From: Pseudomonas phage 17897
Direction: 5' to 3' (one strand)
Sequence record: OR621025.1
DNA: 7,182 bases
Shown piece by piece: positions 1-7,182 of this stretch (positions are counted from its first letter, which is position 1; every line of letters begins with the position of its first letter). The position numbers and the translations under genes are program-made. The notes under the pieces were generated by a model. The model did not search any database. It was not told where the DNA came from and saw nothing but the letters and a program-made list of their open reading frames with translations.

Positions 1-12
1 TTCGCATAATGT
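1..12. repeat. Terminal direct repeat copy 1: TTCGCATAATGT. It matches the XerC-binding arm plus the first 3 nt of the central region of proteobacterial dif sites (...TTCGCATAA|TGTATA...).
   Basis: The window has an identical 12-mer at 7171-7182. From memory, Xanthomonas inovirus attP cores read TATACATTATGCGAA, the reverse complement of TTCGCATAATGTATA, and the Pseudomonas dif XerC arm reads GATTCGCATAA. Confidence 0.7.
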
Positions 13-115
13 GCAGACGTTACGTTAGGCGCAGCCCGACCGAGGGGAGAGTCACCAGTCCGGAGAATCGCTCAGCGTCCGGACTGGTGATTTACACGTA
101 ACGTCCGTTATGCGA
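2..115 (+). other. Long nested imperfect hairpin (cruciform-capable). The pairings are 2-9 with 108-115 (tcgcataa/ttatgcga) and 16-25 with 96-105 (gacgttacgt/acgtaacgtc). An asymmetric 6-nt/2-nt internal loop lies between them. There is an inner perfect 13-bp inverted repeat, 52-64 with 78-90.
   Basis: Reverse-complement matches were verified base by base. In the packaged plus-strand ssDNA this would fold into a stem whose base is a dif-like XerC-arm duplex. Confidence 0.7.
52..90. repeat. Perfect 13-bp inverted repeat TCACCAGTCCGGA / TCCGGACTGGTGA with a 13-nt loop. It is the inner stem of the junction hairpin.
   Basis: Seen directly in the sequence. Confidence 0.9.
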
Positions 116-124
116 TGCCGCTTT

Positions 125-514: not shown

Positions 515-568
515 ACGTCCCTCCGAACTTTCCCTAGTCAGGTGCCGCGCTCCCGGCTCGTCGGATCA

Positions 569-605
569 GCTTCGCCGATCCGGCGAACGGAAGCACGGGC
601 GAAGC
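569..605. other. GC-rich stem-loop: GCTTCGCC (569-576) pairs with GGCGAAGC (598-605). There is an alternative inner hairpin CGCCG-atc-CGGCG (573-585).
   Basis: Inverted repeats seen directly. Part of the intergenic hairpin cluster 515-725. Confidence 0.6.
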
Positions 606-644
606 GAACACTTGACGTTGCACCCCCTGAAACAGCCTCCGCAA

Positions 645-679
645 GGGAGGGAGGGGAAGCTCTATCTCCCCTGCCTCCC
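645..679. other. Imperfect 14-bp inverted repeat. The purine-rich arm GGGAGGGAGGGGAA (645-658) pairs with the pyrimidine-rich arm CTCCCCTGCCTCCC (666-679), with 12 of 14 complementary positions.
   Basis: Seen directly. The strand-asymmetric purine/pyrimidine arms recall packaging-signal and origin hairpins of filamentous phages. That link is inference. Confidence 0.5.
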
Positions 680-705
680 GAGCCCTCGGCGGCAAGAGCG
701 GGATA

Positions 706-724
706 GTAAGGGCAGCGCCCTTAC
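706..724 (-). terminator. Perfect hairpin GTAAGGGC-agc-GCCCTTAC at the 3' end of the minus-strand unit. The stop codon of the 721..918 ORF lies within the stem.
   Basis: 8-bp GC-rich stem with a 3-nt loop. The following U-tract is weak (tatccc), so an intrinsic-terminator role is plausible but not certain. Confidence 0.45.
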
Positions 725-918
725 GACTTTCTGATGCGCTTGCAGCTCACTACGAATTCAGCTTTTGGCATCGCATCGACGGACCGCCAGGCTTTTACGA
801 TTTCTTGGCCGATTTCTTGCCCGGCTTGCATGCACGCCTCTTGCGTGGCGAATCCGTCGATTAGGTGTGTTTCTCGTTGACTGCCAAGCGTGACTAGCAC
901 AAACAGCATCCATTCCAT
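721..918 (-). CDS. Hypothetical 65-aa protein. It has a hydrophobic N-terminus ([13 protein letters not shown]) followed by a soluble domain of about 50 aa. It lies downstream of the repressor and is transcribed in the same direction.
   Basis: A strong RBS AGGAG sits 5 nt upstream of the ATG on the minus strand (plus-strand CTCCT at 925-929). A hairpin follows immediately after the stop. Confidence 0.6.
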
Positions 919-966
919 GAGGGCTCCTGGGTGGCTTTGCGGGACTCTCGATCTGGCCCCGGAGGG

Positions 967-1010
967 GTGGGGGTGCTGTTACACCCCCACTTTACCGCAC
1001 GATCGTGCGG
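967..1010. other. Two adjacent hairpins between the repressor and the 65-aa ORF. The first is GTGGGGGTG-ctgtta-CACCCCCAC (967-990, 9-bp stem, followed by TTTA on the plus strand). The second is the 16-bp perfect palindrome CCGCACGATCGTGCGG (995-1010).
   Basis: Seen directly. They may act as a plus-strand read-through terminator that protects the repressor from antisense transcription. They may also be origin or packaging structures. Confidence 0.5.
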
Positions 1011-1018
1011 CGGTCGGA

Positions 1019-1372
1019 CTAGCGAAGAGCCTCTTGCTCGTACCCGAACAGCACTCCTTTCAGGGCTATCCGTGCTTGATTCCTGATCTCCGCCGGCAGG
1101 GCTTCGAATCTCCGCAATATCGGACGCATGTCGTCAGATATCAGTAGTTCGCTCTCGTCCATCAAGAGTTCGTCTGTGGTCACGCCCAGCACCTTGGCCA
1201 TGGCCAGGGCTTTGTCTGCGGACGGCATTCCATGGCCCGCTTCGTAGCCCGTATAGCTGGACTTGCTCACGCCTGCGGCCTCGTACACCTGCTGTTGTGT
1301 CAAGCCTCGGGCGGCCCGAAATTTTTTCAGGTTTGCTGCAAGGGTCATTTGTCGCTCTTTGAGTGTTTTCAT
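1019..1372 (-). CDS. XRE-family (Cro/C1-type) helix-turn-helix transcriptional repressor, 117 aa. The stop is fixed at 1019. The preferred start is the ATG giving MKTLKERQMTLAANLKKFRAARGLTQQQVYEAAGVSKSSYTGYEAG... In-frame alternatives lie upstream: ATG at 1459 (MDKGHH..., AGGA 2-3 nt upstream) and TTG at 1474 (the track start).
   Basis: Classic HTH_XRE signature (GLTQQQV.EAAGVS...Y...E). It is divergent from the Rep gene, as in phage immunity regions. The 29-aa upstream extension is low-complexity with a lower GC3, and it overlaps a good rightward promoter (-10 CATAAT at 1457-1462). No SD precedes the 1372 ATG, so the transcript may be leaderless or weakly initiated. Confidence 0.8.
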   Translation of the reverse strand: MKTLKERQMTLAANLKKFRAARGLTQQQVYEAAGVSKSSYTGYEAGHGMPSADKALAMAKVLGVTTDELLMDESELLISDDMRPILRRFEALPAEIRNQARIALKGVLFGYEQEALR

Positions 1373-1432
1373 GACTGGGTCAGCGTAGGTGCTGGCTGTT
1401 TGTACAGTTCCAGAATCCTGTGCATTTTCCCC

Positions 1433-1462
1433 TTGATTCTTGTGATGACCCTTGTCCATAAT
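1433..1462 (+). promoter_or_regulatory. Candidate rightward promoter for the Rep operon: -35 TTGATT (1433-1438), 18-bp spacer, -10 CATAAT (1457-1462). A tandem TTGATA-TTGACA pair (1486-1497) lies just downstream.
   Basis: Hexamer matches to the sigma70 consensus seen directly. Its position in the divergent repressor/Rep intergenic region is what one expects. Confidence 0.4.
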
Positions 1463-1506
1463 CCTGCCAATCAACTACCGAAATGTTGATATTGACAGGG
1501 ATTTTC

Positions 1507-2643
1507 ATGTTCATCGACTGGCTTAGCGTTTCACAAGAGCACCTTCACGACCTCCCGGTCGTGTGCGACGTGTTCACGCTCACAGTCGATGCCAATACCC
1601 ATGAGGTTCTGAGTACCCGCCAGCCGTGGTTCAAGCATGAGGGCAGTTACTCCACGTCGATCAAGATCAGTGTCCAGGGTCGTAAGGTTCGTGTTGAGGG
1701 GAATCCCAGCCGAATCGACCGCCAAGACAATCTTTTTGGCTACGTCACCATCGAGCAGTGCATTGCCGTCTACAACCAGCTTTTGGCTGAGTACGGCCTT
1801 CCCGCTTTCACCAGGTGCACTGAAATCCATCTCCGCGACGGTGCATCCGGCGCTCGCCCTGGCGATTGGGTTGCTGATGGATGCGCTATCGACCGCATCG
1901 ACCTGACGACGAATGTTTCCGTAGGGGAGGGCAACGTCCTCGCCTACCTGCGCGGCCTGTCTACCCAGCGTATTGGCCACTCTGTTGGCTACCTGTATCC
2001 GAATGGCCGGACCGTTGATTGGACTGCTGCCGGTAAAAGGAAAGGTGGTGTCCGTCTCCAGTATCGAAAGGCGTACGACAAAGCCTTTGAAATGGGCGAG
2101 CACCTTCGCCCGCGCGTTCTGCGCATGTTCGGCGATGAATCGCCAGAGCTGGCCTACGTGGACCAGCTGATTTCGTACTGCAACCAGCATGGCGTTGTGC
2201 GGCAAGAACAGGAGCTGAAACAGGAGTTCCTGAGCCGTGAAGGTCTTCGCTACTGGGGCCTTTTCAACGAAAACCGTCTCCGCGACATACACGATGAATT
2301 CCTGGCGGTGGACAAGAAACTGAAGGTAACGGCCATGGACCTTGCGACCATTTCTCAGCAACTGATTGCCGAGGGTGTTGTTACCAGCACCTATGCGGCC
2401 AACATGACCGCGATGGTCGCTATCAATTGGAGCAACGGGCAGCCTTTCGACAAGAACAACCGTTCCCTCCAGAAACATCGTGCACGTCTTCGTCAGATCG
2501 GTATCGACATCGCTAACCCTTGCGATACCAGCCGCTTCACGCCCGTCATTGTGCGCCAGGCTCGGGAGGTTACGAAAACCTACGATCTTCCGATTCCGGA
2601 CTGGTATCGCCGTCCTGTTGGCCATCTGCGGTTGGTGGCCTGA
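1507..2643 (+). CDS. Rolling-circle replication initiation protein of the Rep_trans / phage pII-CRI type, 378 aa. An alternative start is the ATG at 1483, which adds 8 aa.
   Basis: From memory, the motifs AIDRIDLTTN and GYLYPNGRT...VRLQYRKAYDKAFE resemble the conserved RxDxAxD and TLYxGSR...RIYDK active-site region of pT181 RepC-like Rep_trans initiators. These are also found in Pf3- and Neisseria-type inovirus Reps. ATG 1507 is preceded by AGGGA at 1496-1500. It is the first gene of the plus-strand operon, divergent from the repressor. Confidence 0.8.
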   Translation: MFIDWLSVSQEHLHDLPVVCDVFTLTVDANTHEVLSTRQPWFKHEGSYSTSIKISVQGRKVRVEGNPSRIDRQDNLFGYVTIEQCIAVYNQLLAEYGLPAFTRCTEIHLRDGASGARPGDWVADGCAIDRIDLTTNVSVGEGNVLAYLRGLSTQRIGHSVGYLYPNGRTVDWTAAGKRKGGVRLQYRKAYDKAFEMGEHLRPRVLRMFGDESPELAYVDQLISYCNQHGVVRQEQELKQEFLSREGLRYWGLFNENRLRDIHDEFLAVDKKLKVTAMDLATISQQLIAEGVVTSTYAANMTAMVAINWSNGQPFDKNNRSLQKHRARLRQIGIDIANPCDTSRFTPVIVRQAREVTKTYDLPIPDWYRRPVGHLRLVA

Positions 2644-2715
2644 CGTGCTCGCCCCGACTCTCGAAGCCCTCGCGCTGTTCGCCGGTGCCGCCACTCTGAT
2701 TCACGCACTGGGCGT

Positions 2716-2964
2716 ATGGGCGCGCTCATGAGAACGGTCAGTTTCCAGGGTGCGACCCTCTCGGCCAGTGAACGCCGCTCGCTTGAGCTTCGCCAGCGTG
2801 CCATGGCGGCGGTGAATCAGTCCGTGTTGCAACAGCAAGTTGCGGCCACGCTCCAGGCCCTGGAGCAGCACAAAGAGCAGGGCGGCAAGCCCGAAAAGGT
2901 CTGGTCCACGATCTCCAACGAAAAGGGCACGCCGTTCCTAGGCGACGTGTTCGGGTGGCCGTGA
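2716..2964 (+). CDS. Hypothetical 82-aa protein, Q/A-rich and helical (...ERRSLELRQRAMAAVNQSVLQQQVAATLQALEQHKEQ...). An alternative start is the ATG at 2728.
   Basis: The ORF lies directly downstream of Rep. Its stop TGA (2962-2964) overlaps the ATG of the next gene (TGATG). Confidence 0.55.
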   Translation: MGALMRTVSFQGATLSASERRSLELRQRAMAAVNQSVLQQQVAATLQALEQHKEQGGKPEKVWSTISNEKGTPFLGDVFGWP

Positions 2965-3062
2965 TGAAGCTCAAACGTCTTCGCTGCCCTCGTTGTGGCC
3001 GTTTCGTTTGTGTCGGTCTTCGTATCTGCACTCATTGTGATGCTTATGGGCGGTGGCTCTGA
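2964..3062 (+). CDS. 32-aa Cys4 zinc-ribbon microprotein MKLKRLRCPRCGRFVCVGLRICTHCDAYGRWL, with CxxC-x11-CxxC and a basic N-terminus.
   Basis: It is not in the ORF track because it is too short. It is bounded on both sides by TGATG stop/start overlaps (2962-2966 and 3060-3064). This places it in a translationally coupled chain of four genes. Confidence 0.55.
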   Translation: MKLKRLRCPRCGRFVCVGLRICTHCDAYGRWL

Positions 3063-3325
3063 TGGCTATCGAGATCAACCGCCAGTCGTACCTGTCGCTC
3101 CGGTCCTCGTTGGAGCTTGAACTGCTCGATGCCGGTATCGACTCGCCGGACCTGCTGAGCCGGCTTATGCGCCACGTGCTTGCCGCCGAATCCGCGACCC
3201 GCGCTGAGTCGCAAACCGTTCGCCGTGCGTTCGTCACGGCCCGTAGAAACCCGCTGCTGGGCGCAATCCCTCAGCACTCCCAGGGGCGCACAAATCGCCC
3301 GTATATCCGCAAGAGGAAACCCTAA
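3062..3325 (+). CDS. Hypothetical 87-aa protein (MAIEINRQSYLSLRSSLELELLDAG...RPYIRKRKP) with a basic C-terminal tail.
   Basis: ATG at 3062 overlaps the preceding TGA. The track start GTG 3053 is less likely. Its stop TAA overlaps the ATG of the ssDNA-binding gene (TAATG at 3323-3327). Confidence 0.6.
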   Translation: MAIEINRQSYLSLRSSLELELLDAGIDSPDLLSRLMRHVLAAESATRAESQTVRRAFVTARRNPLLGAIPQHSQGRTNRPYIRKRKP

Positions 3326-3633
3326 TGCCCTTCGTCTATCTCGGCCTGACTCGTGACGCCGGAACATCGAAAAAGACCGGCAACGCCTATGACATTTCGG
3401 TCGTGCACTTCGCTGTCGATGCGACGCAATCGACTCGGCCTGATCGCAAGTTTGCCCTCGGTCTGGAGCCTCAGAATCTGCCGATCGCGCCGGAAGCGGT
3501 GAGCCAGTTCCAGCGTGTTGAGCCGTTGAGTTCGGTCAACTTCGAGTTCGAGCCGGACCCTCGGAACATGCAGCGCAACCGTATTTGCGGCGTTAAGCCG
3601 GTGCCGAAAGCGGCTGCTCAGACGGCGTCGTAA
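3325..3633 (+). CDS. Gene-V-like ssDNA-binding protein, 102 aa.
   Basis: Strong RBS AAGAGGAAA at 3311-3319. It sits immediately before the coat module. The N-terminal segment ...LTRDAGTSKKTGNAYDISVVHFAVD resembles, from memory, the Pf3 gene 5 protein ...FTDSVRQGTSAKGNPYTFQEGFLHLED. The flexible Pro/Ala/Lys C-terminal tail (KPVPKAAAQTAS) is like Pf1 g5p. Confidence 0.7.
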   Translation: MPFVYLGLTRDAGTSKKTGNAYDISVVHFAVDATQSTRPDRKFALGLEPQNLPIAPEAVSQFQRVEPLSSVNFEFEPDPRNMQRNRICGVKPVPKAAAQTAS

Positions 3634-3669
3634 TTCTGGCTAATTATTAAGAATCAGGGGTGATCGAAA

Positions 3670-3813
3670 ATGGAAGCGGCAATGCAACTTTTAAGTTCGG
3701 TCACTTTTGAAAGTCTCACGGCGGTATACGGTTCCGGGTTTATCTTGACCTTTGCCGCATATGCCGTGGGTTTAAAAGTAGGAATCGTACTAAGTGCGAT
3801 CCGCAAACTATGA
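3670..3813 (+). CDS. 47-aa hydrophobic, single-TM protein MEAAMQLLSSVTFESLTAVYGSGFILTFAAYAVGLKVGIVLSAIRKL. It is a candidate pVII/pIX-type minor coat protein or a PfsE-like superinfection-exclusion peptide.
   Basis: SD GGGGTGA at 3655-3661 lies 8 nt before the ATG. It is not in the ORF track (too short). Its position between the ssDNA-binding and major coat genes matches gVII/gIX in Ff phages and PfsE in Pf4. Confidence 0.55.
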   Translation: MEAAMQLLSSVTFESLTAVYGSGFILTFAAYAVGLKVGIVLSAIRKL

Positions 3814-3825
3814 AAGAGGTGAATC

Positions 3826-3960
3826 ATGGCTGATATTTTCGGTGCGGTAGACTTTTCCAGCGTTTCCACCTGGGTCGTAAGTGCCGGTGTTGCGATCATC
3901 GGTATTGCGATGGCGTTCAAAGGGATCGACCTGGGCAAGCGCGGCGTTAAGAAGGCCTAA
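3826..3960 (+). CDS. Major coat protein (pVIII-like), 44 aa, with no signal peptide: MADIFGAVDFSSVSTWVVSAGVAIIGIAMAFKGIDLGKRGVKKA.
   Basis: RBS AAAGAGGTGA at 3812-3821, with an in-frame stop immediately upstream. It has an acidic N-terminus, a hydrophobic core and a basic C-terminus (K, KR, KK). This is the textbook inovirus coat layout. The length and signal-less form match the Pf3 coat. A strong terminator follows. Confidence 0.85.
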   Translation: MADIFGAVDFSSVSTWVVSAGVAIIGIAMAFKGIDLGKRGVKKA

Positions 3961-3969
3961 GGGCCAGGG

Positions 3970-3997
3970 CAGGGGGCTGAAAGGCCCCCTGTATCTT
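3970..3997 (+). terminator. Intrinsic terminator after the coat gene: CAGGGGGC-tgaaag-GCCCCCTG followed by TATCTT.
   Basis: Perfect 8-bp GC stem with a T-rich trail. It is positioned as the post-gVIII terminator that boosts coat mRNA in Ff phages. Confidence 0.7.
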
Positions 3998-4120
3998 ATG
4001 GAACCCTCTCAACTTACATTCACAGCGGCGGACCTTGCGCTGGTAGTTCACGCCCTGGTCTTCCATGGCGGGGTATTGGCAGCATGGGCATTTATCGCCG
4101 GTATGCGGCAGCGTTTCTAG
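3998..4120 (+). CDS. Possible 40-aa hydrophobic peptide MEPSQLTFTAADLALVVHALVFHGGVLAAWAFIAGMRQRF. It overlaps the pIII start by 37 nt.
   Basis: The ATG comes right after the terminator. No SD is present. It is TM-like. It may be real or may only be the 5' leader of the pIII gene. Confidence 0.3.
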   Translation: MEPSQLTFTAADLALVVHALVFHGGVLAAWAFIAGMRQRF

Positions 4121-5490
4121 CGTTCTCGTTTTTTCTCTCCTCTGAAGTTTCGTACTCCGCGACTCGAAAGAGCGTCACCGTGCCTAGTGCAAGTGTTGTT
4201 GCGCGCGGTGGCGGCTCTCCTTCTGTTTCCGGCCCATCTTTAAAGATTCCTGGCCAGCCTGGCGTTGAATACATTCCTCGATCTGGCGGCGGGGCTTCTG
4301 GCGTTCCCATCAAGATTATCCCGACGATTGATTTCTCTATTCCTAGGACGATCAAGGGGGGTGTTTCGTCGCTTAAAGGTGGTGTTGCTGGTGTTGCTGC
4401 CACCGCTGCGATGGCAATGGCTCTGGATAAGATTGGCGGTTTTATTGATGAAAACGGAAAGCCTGTAATCAAGAAGCCGCAAGGGGAAGTTCCGATTGAT
4501 GTATTTGGCTATAGGAGTTCTGCCTGGAGCTTCTGCAATACGTCTATATATCCGTCTCCCATGGGTTATATGGCATGCGCTCAGCCGCGCATAGAGTCTT
4601 ACGTGAGTTCTACTATTTCTTACAAGCTTCAGCCGGTCCCAAATAGTAGCGGTTATCGTGTCCTTTGGACTAATAACAAGACTGGTCAAGAGTCGCAGTT
4701 CTATGTTGAGGCGGTAGGTAATTGTCCGGGAATTTTGGTTGATTCGACCTGCTATCAGGAAGAGGTAATAAGCCCTTTCACTGATTCGGATTATGACAGC
4801 CTGACCGATACGTTGTCGGGGGTGGTGGACCCGAATTGGCTCAAGGACTTGTTAACTGCGACTTGTGAGGGGTCTTTGAATCCGGCTGCGTGCTATGACC
4901 AGATGTCTGAAACGACGCACCTTAGCGGCCCGTCCTCGGTGACGGGGCCTAAGACTTCAAGCACGACGACAACCACGAATCCTGATGGCACTACCAGCAC
5001 GACGACGAAGGACACTCAAACTAAGTATGAGATTAAGTATGGCGATAACTATATCGACTATACGGAAACGACCACGACTACGACAACGAAAGACGGTGAT
5101 AAAACTGAAGAGACGACTACGACTGACACTGACGACGTGACGGCAGAAGTTCCTCCCGAAGAGAAAGAGGAGGAGGGTGGTAGCTTTGAAGACTCTGAAT
5201 TTCCGGAAGTTAAGCCGTTCTATGAACAAAAATATGAGGATGGGCTGGAGGGTGTATGGCGTGACAAGCGCGCCGAATTTGAAGATACGGAGTTCATGAA
5301 ATTTCTCCAGGGGTTCATTCCGTCGTTTTCGGGGCGGTGTCCGGCATTTGGGCTGGATATGAATATTGCGTCTTGGGCGAACTATGGTTATCAGCAATTC
5401 GGGTCTATCTGCTATGTGCTTGATTTCGTGAAGGCGATTCTTATGGTTTCGGCCTTGTTCTTGTGTCGCGCTCTGATTTTCGGAGGTTGA
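4084..5490 (+). CDS. pIII-like minor coat/adsorption protein, 468 aa. It has an N-terminal signal peptide (MGIYRRYAAAFLAFSFFLSSEVSYSA), a Gly-rich segment, a Thr/Asp/Glu-rich linker and a C-terminal membrane anchor (FGSICYVLDFVKAILMVSALFLCRALIFGG).
   Basis: The domain architecture and its position after the coat gene and terminator fit pIII. The downstream pVI-like gene starts 2 nt after its stop. Confidence 0.85.
   Translation: MGIYRRYAAAFLAFSFFLSSEVSYSATRKSVTVPSASVVARGGGSPSVSGPSLKIPGQPGVEYIPRSGGGASGVPIKIIPTIDFSIPRTIKGGVSSLKGGVAGVAATAAMAMALDKIGGFIDENGKPVIKKPQGEVPIDVFGYRSSAWSFCNTSIYPSPMGYMACAQPRIESYVSSTISYKLQPVPNSSGYRVLWTNNKTGQESQFYVEAVGNCPGILVDSTCYQEEVISPFTDSDYDSLTDTLSGVVDPNWLKDLLTATCEGSLNPAACYDQMSETTHLSGPSSVTGPKTSSTTTTTNPDGTTSTTTKDTQTKYEIKYGDNYIDYTETTTTTTTKDGDKTEETTTTDTDDVTAEVPPEEKEEEGGSFEDSEFPEVKPFYEQKYEDGLEGVWRDKRAEFEDTEFMKFLQGFIPSFSGRCPAFGLDMNIASWANYGYQQFGSICYVLDFVKAILMVSALFLCRALIFGG
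4957..5182 (+). repeat. Low-complexity Thr-rich coding repeat (ACN codons: ACGACGACAACCACG...ACGACCACGACTACGACAACG...ACGACTACGACTGACACTGACGAC). It is followed by an acidic Glu/Lys stretch and encodes the pIII interdomain linker.
   Basis: Seen directly in the sequence. It is a likely hotspot for in-frame length variation. Confidence 0.7.
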
Positions 5491-7022: not shown

Positions 7023-7170
7023 ACCCGATTCCCGGCGGTGCCTGTGTTCTCGATTAACCCCTTTGACGGTCGTTCCAGGGTCAGCCCAAAGGCTCCAGGC
7101 CCTGGATATCTTCGCCCGTTGCCCAGCGTCGATTTCAGCGTCGGATGGTTCGGGGGTTCGCATCTCTGGC

Positions 7171-7182
7171 TTCGCATAATGT
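7171..7182. repeat. Terminal direct repeat copy 2: TTCGCATAATGT. A partial extra TTCGCAT lies 9 nt upstream at about 7156-7162.
   Basis: Exact match to nt 1-12. The sequence reads ggTTCGCATctctggcTTCGCATAATGT. Confidence 0.7.

Follow-up and report, generated by a model that had tools for sequence, protein, structure and literature searches.

An optional cassette carrying a putative zinc-ribbon microgene in the replication operon of a small Pf filamentous prophage of Pseudomonas aeruginosa

A tiny open reading frame (ORF) of 32 codons, hereafter the micro-ORF (MKLKRLRCPRCGRFVCVGLRICTHCDAYGRWL; positions 2964-3062, plus strand), lies between the replication gene and the single-stranded DNA (ssDNA)-binding protein gene, ssb, of Pseudomonas phage 17897 (OR621025.1), within the 7,182-base stretch of DNA that we analysed and call the window. 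The window is a complete small Pf filamentous prophage of Pseudomonas aeruginosa, CTX-like and without an integrase. We found that the micro-ORF is the content of an optional 98-bp cassette, placed in the stop-start overlap between two small genes, ORF78 and ORF87. In kind, it is an accessory phage microgene, similar to a moron but without a promoter or terminator of its own, and it encodes a minimal zinc ribbon. We lean towards the view that its product is a functional accessory microprotein.

The initial annotation had described this region as a translationally coupled chain of four genes. The three overlaps on which that description was based are present in the sequence, as TGATG at 2962-2966, TGATG at 3060-3064 and TAATG at 3323-3327, and the ORF sizes are also right (2716-2964, 82 residues; 2964-3062, 32 residues; 3062-3325, 87 residues; 3325-3633, 102 residues). 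The extent of the chain and its first start needed revision: the chain is longer, with a conserved ORF of 28 residues upstream, and the gene that had been given as its first has 78 residues when read from ATG 2728. Because the ORF78/ORF87 junction (TGATG) and the ORF87/ssb junction are kept in 74 related loci, the stop-start chain goes beyond chance.

The cassette occupies 2962-3059 or, equivalently, 2967-3064 (plus strand) at the ORF78/ORF87 junction, which we call J3; its ends are ambiguous by 5 nucleotides because of the TGATG repeat. It lies between the copies of an imperfect 13-bp direct repeat, spaced by 98 nucleotides and 85% identical. In the left copy (GGTGGCCGTGATG, 2954-2966, plus strand), which is the ancestral junction, a Shine-Dalgarno-like GGTGG is followed by the stop of ORF78 and the start of the micro-ORF; in the right copy (GGTGGCTCTGATG, 3052-3064, plus strand), the Shine-Dalgarno-like element of ORF87 is followed by the stop of the micro-ORF and the start of ORF87. 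The alignments of relatives all stop at 2966 and restart at 3052. In phage WX_Y, which is 91% identical here, one clean gap of 98 bp corresponds exactly to the micro-ORF, and a single TGATG joins ORF78 and ORF87. The ancestral junction without the cassette reads GGTGGCCGTGATGGCT.

The cassette also differs from its surroundings in composition. Its GC content at third codon positions (GC3) is 0.42 and its T content at these positions (T3) about 0.52-0.53, against 0.76-0.80 and 0.10-0.15, respectively, in the flanking genes. No similarity that would indicate the origin of the insert was found by blastn-short against the rest of the window and the relatives, by Smith-Waterman comparison against shuffles (P = 0.18) or by distant blastn against phages. 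The micro-ORF and ORF78 have similar ends, eight codons in the one (D-A-Y-G-R-W-L-stop) and seven in the other (D-V-F-G-W-P-stop), and 3040-3064 matches 2940-2966 at 16/23 nucleotides with one codon gap, as counted by eye; the tail of the cassette may have arisen from that of ORF78 by copying and divergence.

Among 74 family loci, 14 carry the cassette and 60 have ORF78 and ORF87 joined directly by TGATG; the loci were sampled non-randomly, so 14/74 is not a population frequency. None of the 38 IMG/VR loci and neither of two related GenBank phages (WX_Y and 36-2) has it. This distribution places the micro-ORF outside the inovirus core, as had been proposed. Conservation in related phages, on which the initial annotation had made its proposal depend, gave a divided answer: most relatives lack the ORF altogether, but where it is present both the cysteine spacing and the reading frame are kept. 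The carriers were recovered from public assemblies by exact-protein look-ups of neighbouring genes. They represent at least 11 independent assemblies produced by different projects, Logan assemblies of raw runs among them, and the micro-ORF is intact in every carrier found.

Three haplotypes carry nearly the same cassette: haplotype A, that of the window; haplotype B (loci L044 and L048), with a different Rep of 374 residues; and haplotype C (L176 and L177), a third background. Between them the cassette differs at one synonymous site (TAT/TAC at 3047) and the flanks differ by 5-18%; expressed over all three haplotypes, 2 of 288 sites differ in the cassette versus 15.5% in ORF78 and 5.9% in ORF87. 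In a comparison of ORF87 plus ssb, the carriers are not monophyletic and are scattered among non-carriers. The near-identical cassette, the divergent flanks and the interspersed carriers together indicate that, within haplotypes A-C, it moved between backgrounds by recombination.

Altogether we found four alleles (98 bp with TAT, 98 bp with TAC, 92 bp and 95 bp), whose length differences are all in frame and which all keep C8, C11, C16, C22, C25, His24, Pro9 and Gly12; their conserved core is GGTCTTCGTATCTGCACTCATTGTGATGC. The second allele group belongs to a lineage with the ORF87 variant P0021 (22 contigs) and a different structural module. In this lineage, 7/7 places listed carry a cassette of the 92-bp type, encoding MKRLRCPLCGRFVCIGLRICTHCDAYGRWS, one of them with an extra in-frame GTT. 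Relative to the 98-bp form, the 92-bp group shows a 6-nucleotide indel and six substitutions, which change two codons synonymously and three non-synonymously (R>L at a variable knuckle position, V>I, and L>S at the C-terminus). The two allele groups diverge by 6.5%, near the 5-11% of their flanks, so the cassette is more than a recent accident. The idea of a uniformly "very young" cassette was dropped once the 92-bp group was found. The cassette is found together with more than one version of the replication gene and also of the structural genes; it has thus persisted through about 6.5% divergence and recombined between backgrounds with different Rep and structural modules.

The predicted product of the micro-ORF is a very basic peptide (net charge about +7) that is by its sequence a C4 zinc ribbon, C-x2-C-x10-C-x2-C, and would be expected to bind zinc. 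The CPRC and CTHC knuckles that had been reported are there (C8-P-R-C11 and C22-T-H-C25), but they are separated by ten residues and not eleven; a fifth cysteine stands at position 16. The first knuckle is a canonical CPxCG, and the two CxxC knuckles fall within the zinc-ribbon spacing of roughly 8-15 residues. Shuffle tests uphold the motif as one that composition does not account for: when the insert is shuffled, the frame is open in 43% of cases, C..C-x8-14-C..C occurs in an open frame in 0.05%, and CP.CG…C..C in 3 of 10^6.

Profile comparisons point the same way. Among Pfam families, the micro-ORF scores best with Zn_ribbon_3 (PF13248; E = 8.6e-4, 19.1 bits, cut-off 27), followed by UPF0547 (PF10571; 17.9 bits, cut-off 29) and DZR (PF12773; 17.0 bits, cut-off 27.3). 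The best full-span match in the PDB is the zinc ribbon of bL32 (E = 0.016), and RCPRCGRFVCVGLRICTHCDAYG aligns to this and to other basic RNA-binding ribbons at E = 0.016-0.03. A single-sequence AlphaFold prediction gave a compact model of modest confidence (predicted local distance difference test, pLDDT, 71) with strands at 5-7 and 14-16. Many of the top Foldseek matches of this model are zinc mini-domains, none with an E-value below 1.

Searches for relatives of the peptide returned zinc ribbons in general and no orthologue. HMMER against 1.84 billion representative proteins gave 19 significant matches, each made up of several matched stretches; of six that were compared with Pfam, five are multi-zinc-ribbon proteins with 38-48% identity, and none of the matches is an orthologue. 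No true match was obtained by tblastn of the peptide against GenBank phages and against plasmids, or with a tandem-duplicated query against 5.8 billion proteins. Back-translated patterns found no match to the peptide in IMG/VR; these first patterns demanded CPRCG, and hence were blind to the CPLCG allele, and a second IMG/VR scan with the conserved stretch GLRICTHCDA also gave no match. With the CPRCG-type pattern, the GTDB representative genomes yielded 8 matches, all unrelated B-box or zinc-finger proteins, and the JGI metagenomes 115, all generic zinc ribbons inside larger proteins. A literature search found no paper connecting inoviruses with zinc ribbons.

Several features suggest that the micro-ORF is translated. 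A Shine-Dalgarno-like GGGTGG lies five bases 5' of ATG 2964, with a predicted pairing energy of -7.3 kcal/mol; at ATG 3062 the pairing reaches -10.5 kcal/mol, a value within the top 5% for the window, whose median is -4.1. In all alleles the micro-ORF has a same-strand stop-start overlap with both neighbours; its Shine-Dalgarno element is part of the 3'-terminal sequence of ORF78, and it lacks its own promoter and terminator. The reading frame of the micro-ORF is kept through two independent length changes, of 6 and 3 nucleotides. To judge from the start signals, the duplicated junction and the in-frame nature of the indels, ribosomes likely read the micro-ORF. A minus-one frameshift fusion of ORF78 with the micro-ORF was considered and set aside: the frame is open upstream, but no slippery site was seen.

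We propose that the 32-residue ORF is the cargo of a 92-98-bp optional cassette that has settled in the ORF78/ORF87 stop-start overlap of the Rep-to-ssb operon. The left end of the cassette takes over the Shine-Dalgarno element and the ATG that serve ORF87 in cassette-free phages, and its right end provides a fresh copy of the junction (GGTGG, two bases, TGATG). Ribosomes that end ORF78 would then translate the microgene and re-initiate on ORF87 and ssb. The peptide itself may act as a dispensable modulator by binding nucleic acid or else a protein, of the phage or of the host, that takes part in replication or regulation. Such a target, nucleic acid or a replication or regulatory protein, seems most likely from the charge, the fold class, most of whose members bind nucleic acid, and the position in the replication module; nucleic-acid binding makes up about half of our confidence in a functional peptide.

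A number of observations weigh against a functional microprotein. The cassette is missing from 81% of the sampled relatives and hence is dispensable, and the micro-ORF departs from the codon usage of the phage (P = 0.001 with resident usage assumed). The two synonymous and three non-synonymous codon changes between the allele groups are indistinguishable from neutrality. All the Pfam scores are under the gathering cut-offs, which a 32-residue sequence can scarcely reach, and Foldseek gave no significant match for the micro-ORF model. Exact look-ups of five start and allele variants found none of them, and no homologue outside the ORF78/ORF87 junction was present in any collection searched. Translation and zinc binding of the peptide are both read from the sequence, and its assignment to a function from charge and fold class only; the nucleic-acid-binding, regulatory or anti-defence role suggested in the initial annotation is likewise conjectural. 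The failed exact look-ups do agree with the earlier statement that the ORF is unannotated, its product never having been annotated.

The most serious alternative is that the cassette only relays ribosomes: a foreign fragment of about 85-98 bp would have entered the TGATG junction and have been retained solely because, by chance, its frame is open and it closes with a new TGATG, which keeps ORF87 and ssb within reach of ribosomes; the peptide would be made and be of no use. We regard this as rather doubtful. The precise embedding of the micro-ORF between two coupled overlaps, which had been taken to argue that it is translated, carries only half of that argument, as an insert must relay ribosomes to the next TGATG whatever its peptide. 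Any insert that failed to bring ribosomes to the new TGATG would leave ORF87 and ssb uncoupled, so what the embedding reveals is selection on downstream expression and not on the peptide. For the same reason, embedding and frame conservation are equally expected of a functionless relay, and in-frame indels would be seen if ribosome flow alone mattered. With TGATG microhomology, about one third of inserts would be in the right length class and 43% open, so that about 14% would bridge the junction by chance; the neutral-looking substitution pattern and the many relatives without the cassette also suit a relay. What such a relay accounts for poorly is the motif, as CPxCG…CxxC in a random bridging insert is very unlikely (3e-6 to 5e-4), so that the insert would have to come, at the least, from a genuine zinc-ribbon gene sequence. 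Nor would it explain why all metal ligands are kept across 6.5% divergence, or why the cassette spread into several backgrounds, and other cassettes of the same operon are under clear purifying selection. An end-to-end textbook zinc ribbon, with ligands kept in the known alleles and carried into several backgrounds, argues for a role of the peptide beyond that of a relay.

It is improbable that the 98 bp act instead as DNA or RNA, for example as an attenuator hairpin or as a spacer that tunes the ORF78:ORF87:ssb ratio, with the ORF being incidental. There is a weak terminator-like hairpin within the insert (2983-2999), and the insert raises the Shine-Dalgarno pairing of ORF87 from -7.3 to -10.5 kcal/mol. 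However, terminator-like sites number 5 against 3.1 ± 1.8 in shuffles, the single-strand fold has a z-score of -0.13, no Rfam family matches, and both the frame-preserving indels and the zinc-ribbon motif would be left unexplained.

Still less credible is a product in the +1 frame, a hydrophobic peptide of 41 residues (…NVFAALVVAVSFVSVFVSALIVMLMGGGS…, from GTG 2995 to 3120) that would be a small PfsE-like membrane protein. This frame is more hydrophobic than the zinc-ribbon peptide predicts under resident codon usage (P = 0.002), and its GC3 of about 0.6 suits the structural genes of this phage; when codons are resampled with the +1 peptide held constant, the other frame shows a Cys4 motif in 1.4% of cases, but CP.CG…C..C in just 2.7e-4 of them. 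The hydrophobic helix follows from the T-rich third positions of the micro-ORF, which would be natural for a T-rich donor. The +1 frame has no ATG and no Shine-Dalgarno element (-1.6 kcal/mol at GTG 2995), and it runs 19 codons into ORF87 in another frame. The second allele group brings L>R, S>P and F>C into the "helix", whereas the zinc-ribbon frame keeps all motif residues. We reject this frame because it has no start signal, because no homologue of the hydrophobic peptide was found, and because of these helix-breaking changes. An assembly or sequencing error, or a one-off mutation private to one genome, which the absence of the cassette from GenBank phage records and IMG/VR might have suggested, is refuted by its occurrence in so many assemblies from different projects, as four alleles and in several backgrounds.

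The J3 cassette is not the only one in this operon. A Cys-motif scan of the relatives revealed an acidic Cys4 ORF of 55 residues (CSYCG-x22-CPAC) directly after Rep, at the junction between Rep and the 28-residue ORF-h (J1; 2349-2516 in locus L033, 2883-3047 in phage 42-1, OR621020.1). Its GC3 is 0.54 and its ratio of non-synonymous to synonymous polymorphism (pN/pS) 0.18; it is called "hypothetical" in P. aeruginosa genomes and is unannotated in the GenBank record of phage 42-1. It occurs alongside the micro-ORF in L192-L198, and the two have no sequence similarity. At the next junction, between ORF-h and ORF78 (J2), 17/74 loci carry a membrane-type ORF of 58 residues (MNMKTRIFLRTLRFVAYNWWLPFLLGNVFALVGF…; 2601-2777 in L033; pN/pS 0.15). 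The J1 and J2 cassettes each lie between short imperfect repeats in which the local stop-start signal is duplicated, and purifying selection acts on both. Of the possible combinations of J1, J2 and J3, most occur, J1 with J3 among them, but not J2 with J3.

Small junction genes are therefore demonstrably real in this family, which raises the prior for the J3 micro-ORF and suggests promoter-less cassettes that plug into coupled junctions. A bolder reading, which we put forward tentatively, is that the three junctions are landing pads for promoter-less plug-in microgene cassettes with their own adaptors, and that the J3 cargo is an active zinc-ribbon protein. Each cassette would then bring a Shine-Dalgarno element and a stop-start adaptor copying its junction, and cassettes would assort independently by recombination between phages. 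The orphan J3 protein of 30-32 residues might in that case be a regulator of replication or lysogeny, or an exclusion or anti-defence factor, missed by all pipelines.

How the micro-ORF compares with known systems is informative. It shares the hCPxCG-x9/10-hCxxC(G/D) pattern and the length of generic C4 zinc ribbons (Zn_ribbon_3, DZR, UPF0547), and the 115 metagenome pattern matches are ordinary zinc-ribbon modules laid out in the same way. It differs from these in standing alone at 30-32 residues with nothing attached, in its sub-cut-off scores, and in that no orthologue was found. The best full-span structure matches, bL32, Nop10, RpoP/Rpo12 and eL37, are likewise very basic and bind nucleic acid; the E-value is marginal against bL32-type ribbons, the similarity is confined to the knuckles, and the micro-ORF lies in a phage operon. 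Short basic Cys4 proteins that bind nucleic acid or RNA polymerase are known in phages, as Com of Mu, Ogr of P2 and Delta of P4. These are functional analogues only, about twice as long as the micro-ORF and with another cysteine spacing, and they gave no sequence match in any search.

With respect to genetic organization, the cassette resembles phage morons in being optional between conserved neighbours, deviant in composition and dispensable for the core life cycle. Classical morons bear their own promoter and terminator, while the cassette has neither, copies the stop-start junction and depends on coupling. In the Ff phages, tiny ORFs are expressed via stop-start overlaps after a well-translated gene, from gene V to VII to IX to VIII. 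Those coupled small genes are core virion genes in all relatives, whereas the micro-ORF is optional and belongs to the replication module. The layout of the window is that of CTXφ rstA-rstB, with a divergent repressor, a gpII/RstA-type Rep, RstB, a Zot-type gene and no integrase (PMC10675462). CTXφ has no genes between rstA and rstB, where the family of the window has two to five small ORFs (ORF-h, ORF78, ORF87 and the optional J1-J3).

Among functional peptides of this size in Pf phages, the closest precedent is PfsE (PA0721) of Pf4, which has 30 residues, binds PilC and excludes superinfection (PMC8764522). PfsE is hydrophobic, has a YxWGW motif and no cysteine, is encoded next to the coat genes and is kept across Pf4-like phages. 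The micro-ORF product is basic, rich in cysteine and without YxWGW, and has no sequence similarity to it.

Pf prophages shape the virulence and biofilms of P. aeruginosa, and at least one 30-residue Pf4 peptide, PfsE, affects the host strongly. The present locus adds two peptides that no pipeline annotates, the optional zinc-ribbon microprotein and the universally conserved hydrophobic ORF-h, and it shows the replication operon of a common prophage family to be a mosaic of tiny optional genes. An active zinc-ribbon peptide would offer a compact handle, simple to synthesise, on phage replication, on lysogeny or on the conflict between phage and host; were the cassette a relay only, it would exemplify how translational coupling limits the insertions that a compact genome tolerates.

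Regarding the neighbouring genes, ORF-h (VLAPTLEALALFAGAATLIHALGVWARS, with the family form V/M-LAPTLEALALFAGAATLIHALGVWARS; 2645-2731, plus strand) is a hydrophobic, unannotated ORF of 28 residues. It begins with GTG one base past the Rep stop (2643), and its stop overlaps ATG 2728 as ATGA. We found it in every family locus, irrespective of the Rep type. Its pN/pS is 0.23, versus 1.9-2.4 in the shifted frames, and its Shine-Dalgarno pairing is -8.4 kcal/mol; a collection of 15 billion proteins has no entry for it. ORF78 (2728-2964, plus strand; PHROG 7248) has a pN/pS of 0.42. Its start is most likely ATG 2728, to judge from the relatives, in which ORF78 starts at the equivalent ATG; ATG 2716 exists only through a synonymous Val codon, GTA instead of GTG, in the overlapping ORF-h.

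ORF87 (3062-3325, plus strand; PHROG 6290) is found in P. aeruginosa only and has a pN/pS of 0.31. It is predicted to form helices at 7-23 and 29-62, followed by a disordered basic tail. Neither ORF78 nor ORF87 has a Pfam, NCBIfam or PDB match, and the ORF87 model has no significant fold match; the notion of ORF87 as a ribbon-helix-helix protein was an impression only, an unsupported speculation. Through TAATG, ORF87 is joined to the gene of the RstB-like ssDNA-binding protein (3325-3633, plus strand; 102 residues). The identification of this fourth gene in the initial annotation is reasonable, since it matches Pfam CTX_RstB (PF07459) at 30.2 bits, above the gathering cut-off of 26.2, and PHROG 929 "RstB" at 3.4e-33.

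Contig JAJPNG010000008.1 (GCA_022553095.1) contains the window at 100% identity. Its genes are ordered as a divergent XRE-type repressor (1019-1474, minus strand), Rep, the small ORFs, the RstB-family protein, the coat gene, g3p-like and g6p-like genes and a Zot-like gene. Rep (1483-2643, plus strand) is an RstA/gpII-like replication initiator (Pfam G2P_X_C 7.9e-19, Phage_CRI 6.7e-6), and in public assemblies it is called as 378 residues from ATG 1507 (gene calls in L041 and L175). Just 5' of Rep there is a match to a sigma-70-like promoter (TTGATT, an 18-nucleotide spacer, CATAAT; 1433-1462, plus strand). It was the one such site in a scan of 900-4100, against 1.4 expected from shuffles, and is a match to the consensus only; the same scan found no promoter-like site inside the small-gene chain. 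As the only promoter-like site precedes Rep, the whole run looks like one operon of tightly coupled genes, and this site is likely the promoter of the entire Rep-to-ssb operon.

Small Pf prophages without an integrase have been classified as "groups 4-7" by Evseev et al. 2023 (PMC10675462), and the prophage of the window fits these groups. The family is very common: in the index of the assembly collection, 1,455 blocks contain its 44-residue coat protein. At 537-728 (plus strand), the DNA is 85% identical to an internal part of PA0719 of the Pf1/Pf4-type prophages, which are otherwise unrelated to it, and the protein identity in the annotated frame is just 69%. Higher identity in the DNA than in the protein suggests that the constraint acts on another frame or on a non-coding element, for example an origin or a signal for recombination or packaging. 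In the g3p-like gene (4084-5490), a segment at 4466-4780 is swapped or absent in the alignments of most relatives, and both its flanks are about 93-95% identical; it looks like an exchanged receptor-binding segment. The ends of the window (1-119 and 7082-7182) match the annotated repeat_region or attachment end of phage 36-2 (96.6%) as well as the ends of several relatives, and in some genomes two such prophages stand in tandem (L045, L047, L196/L197).

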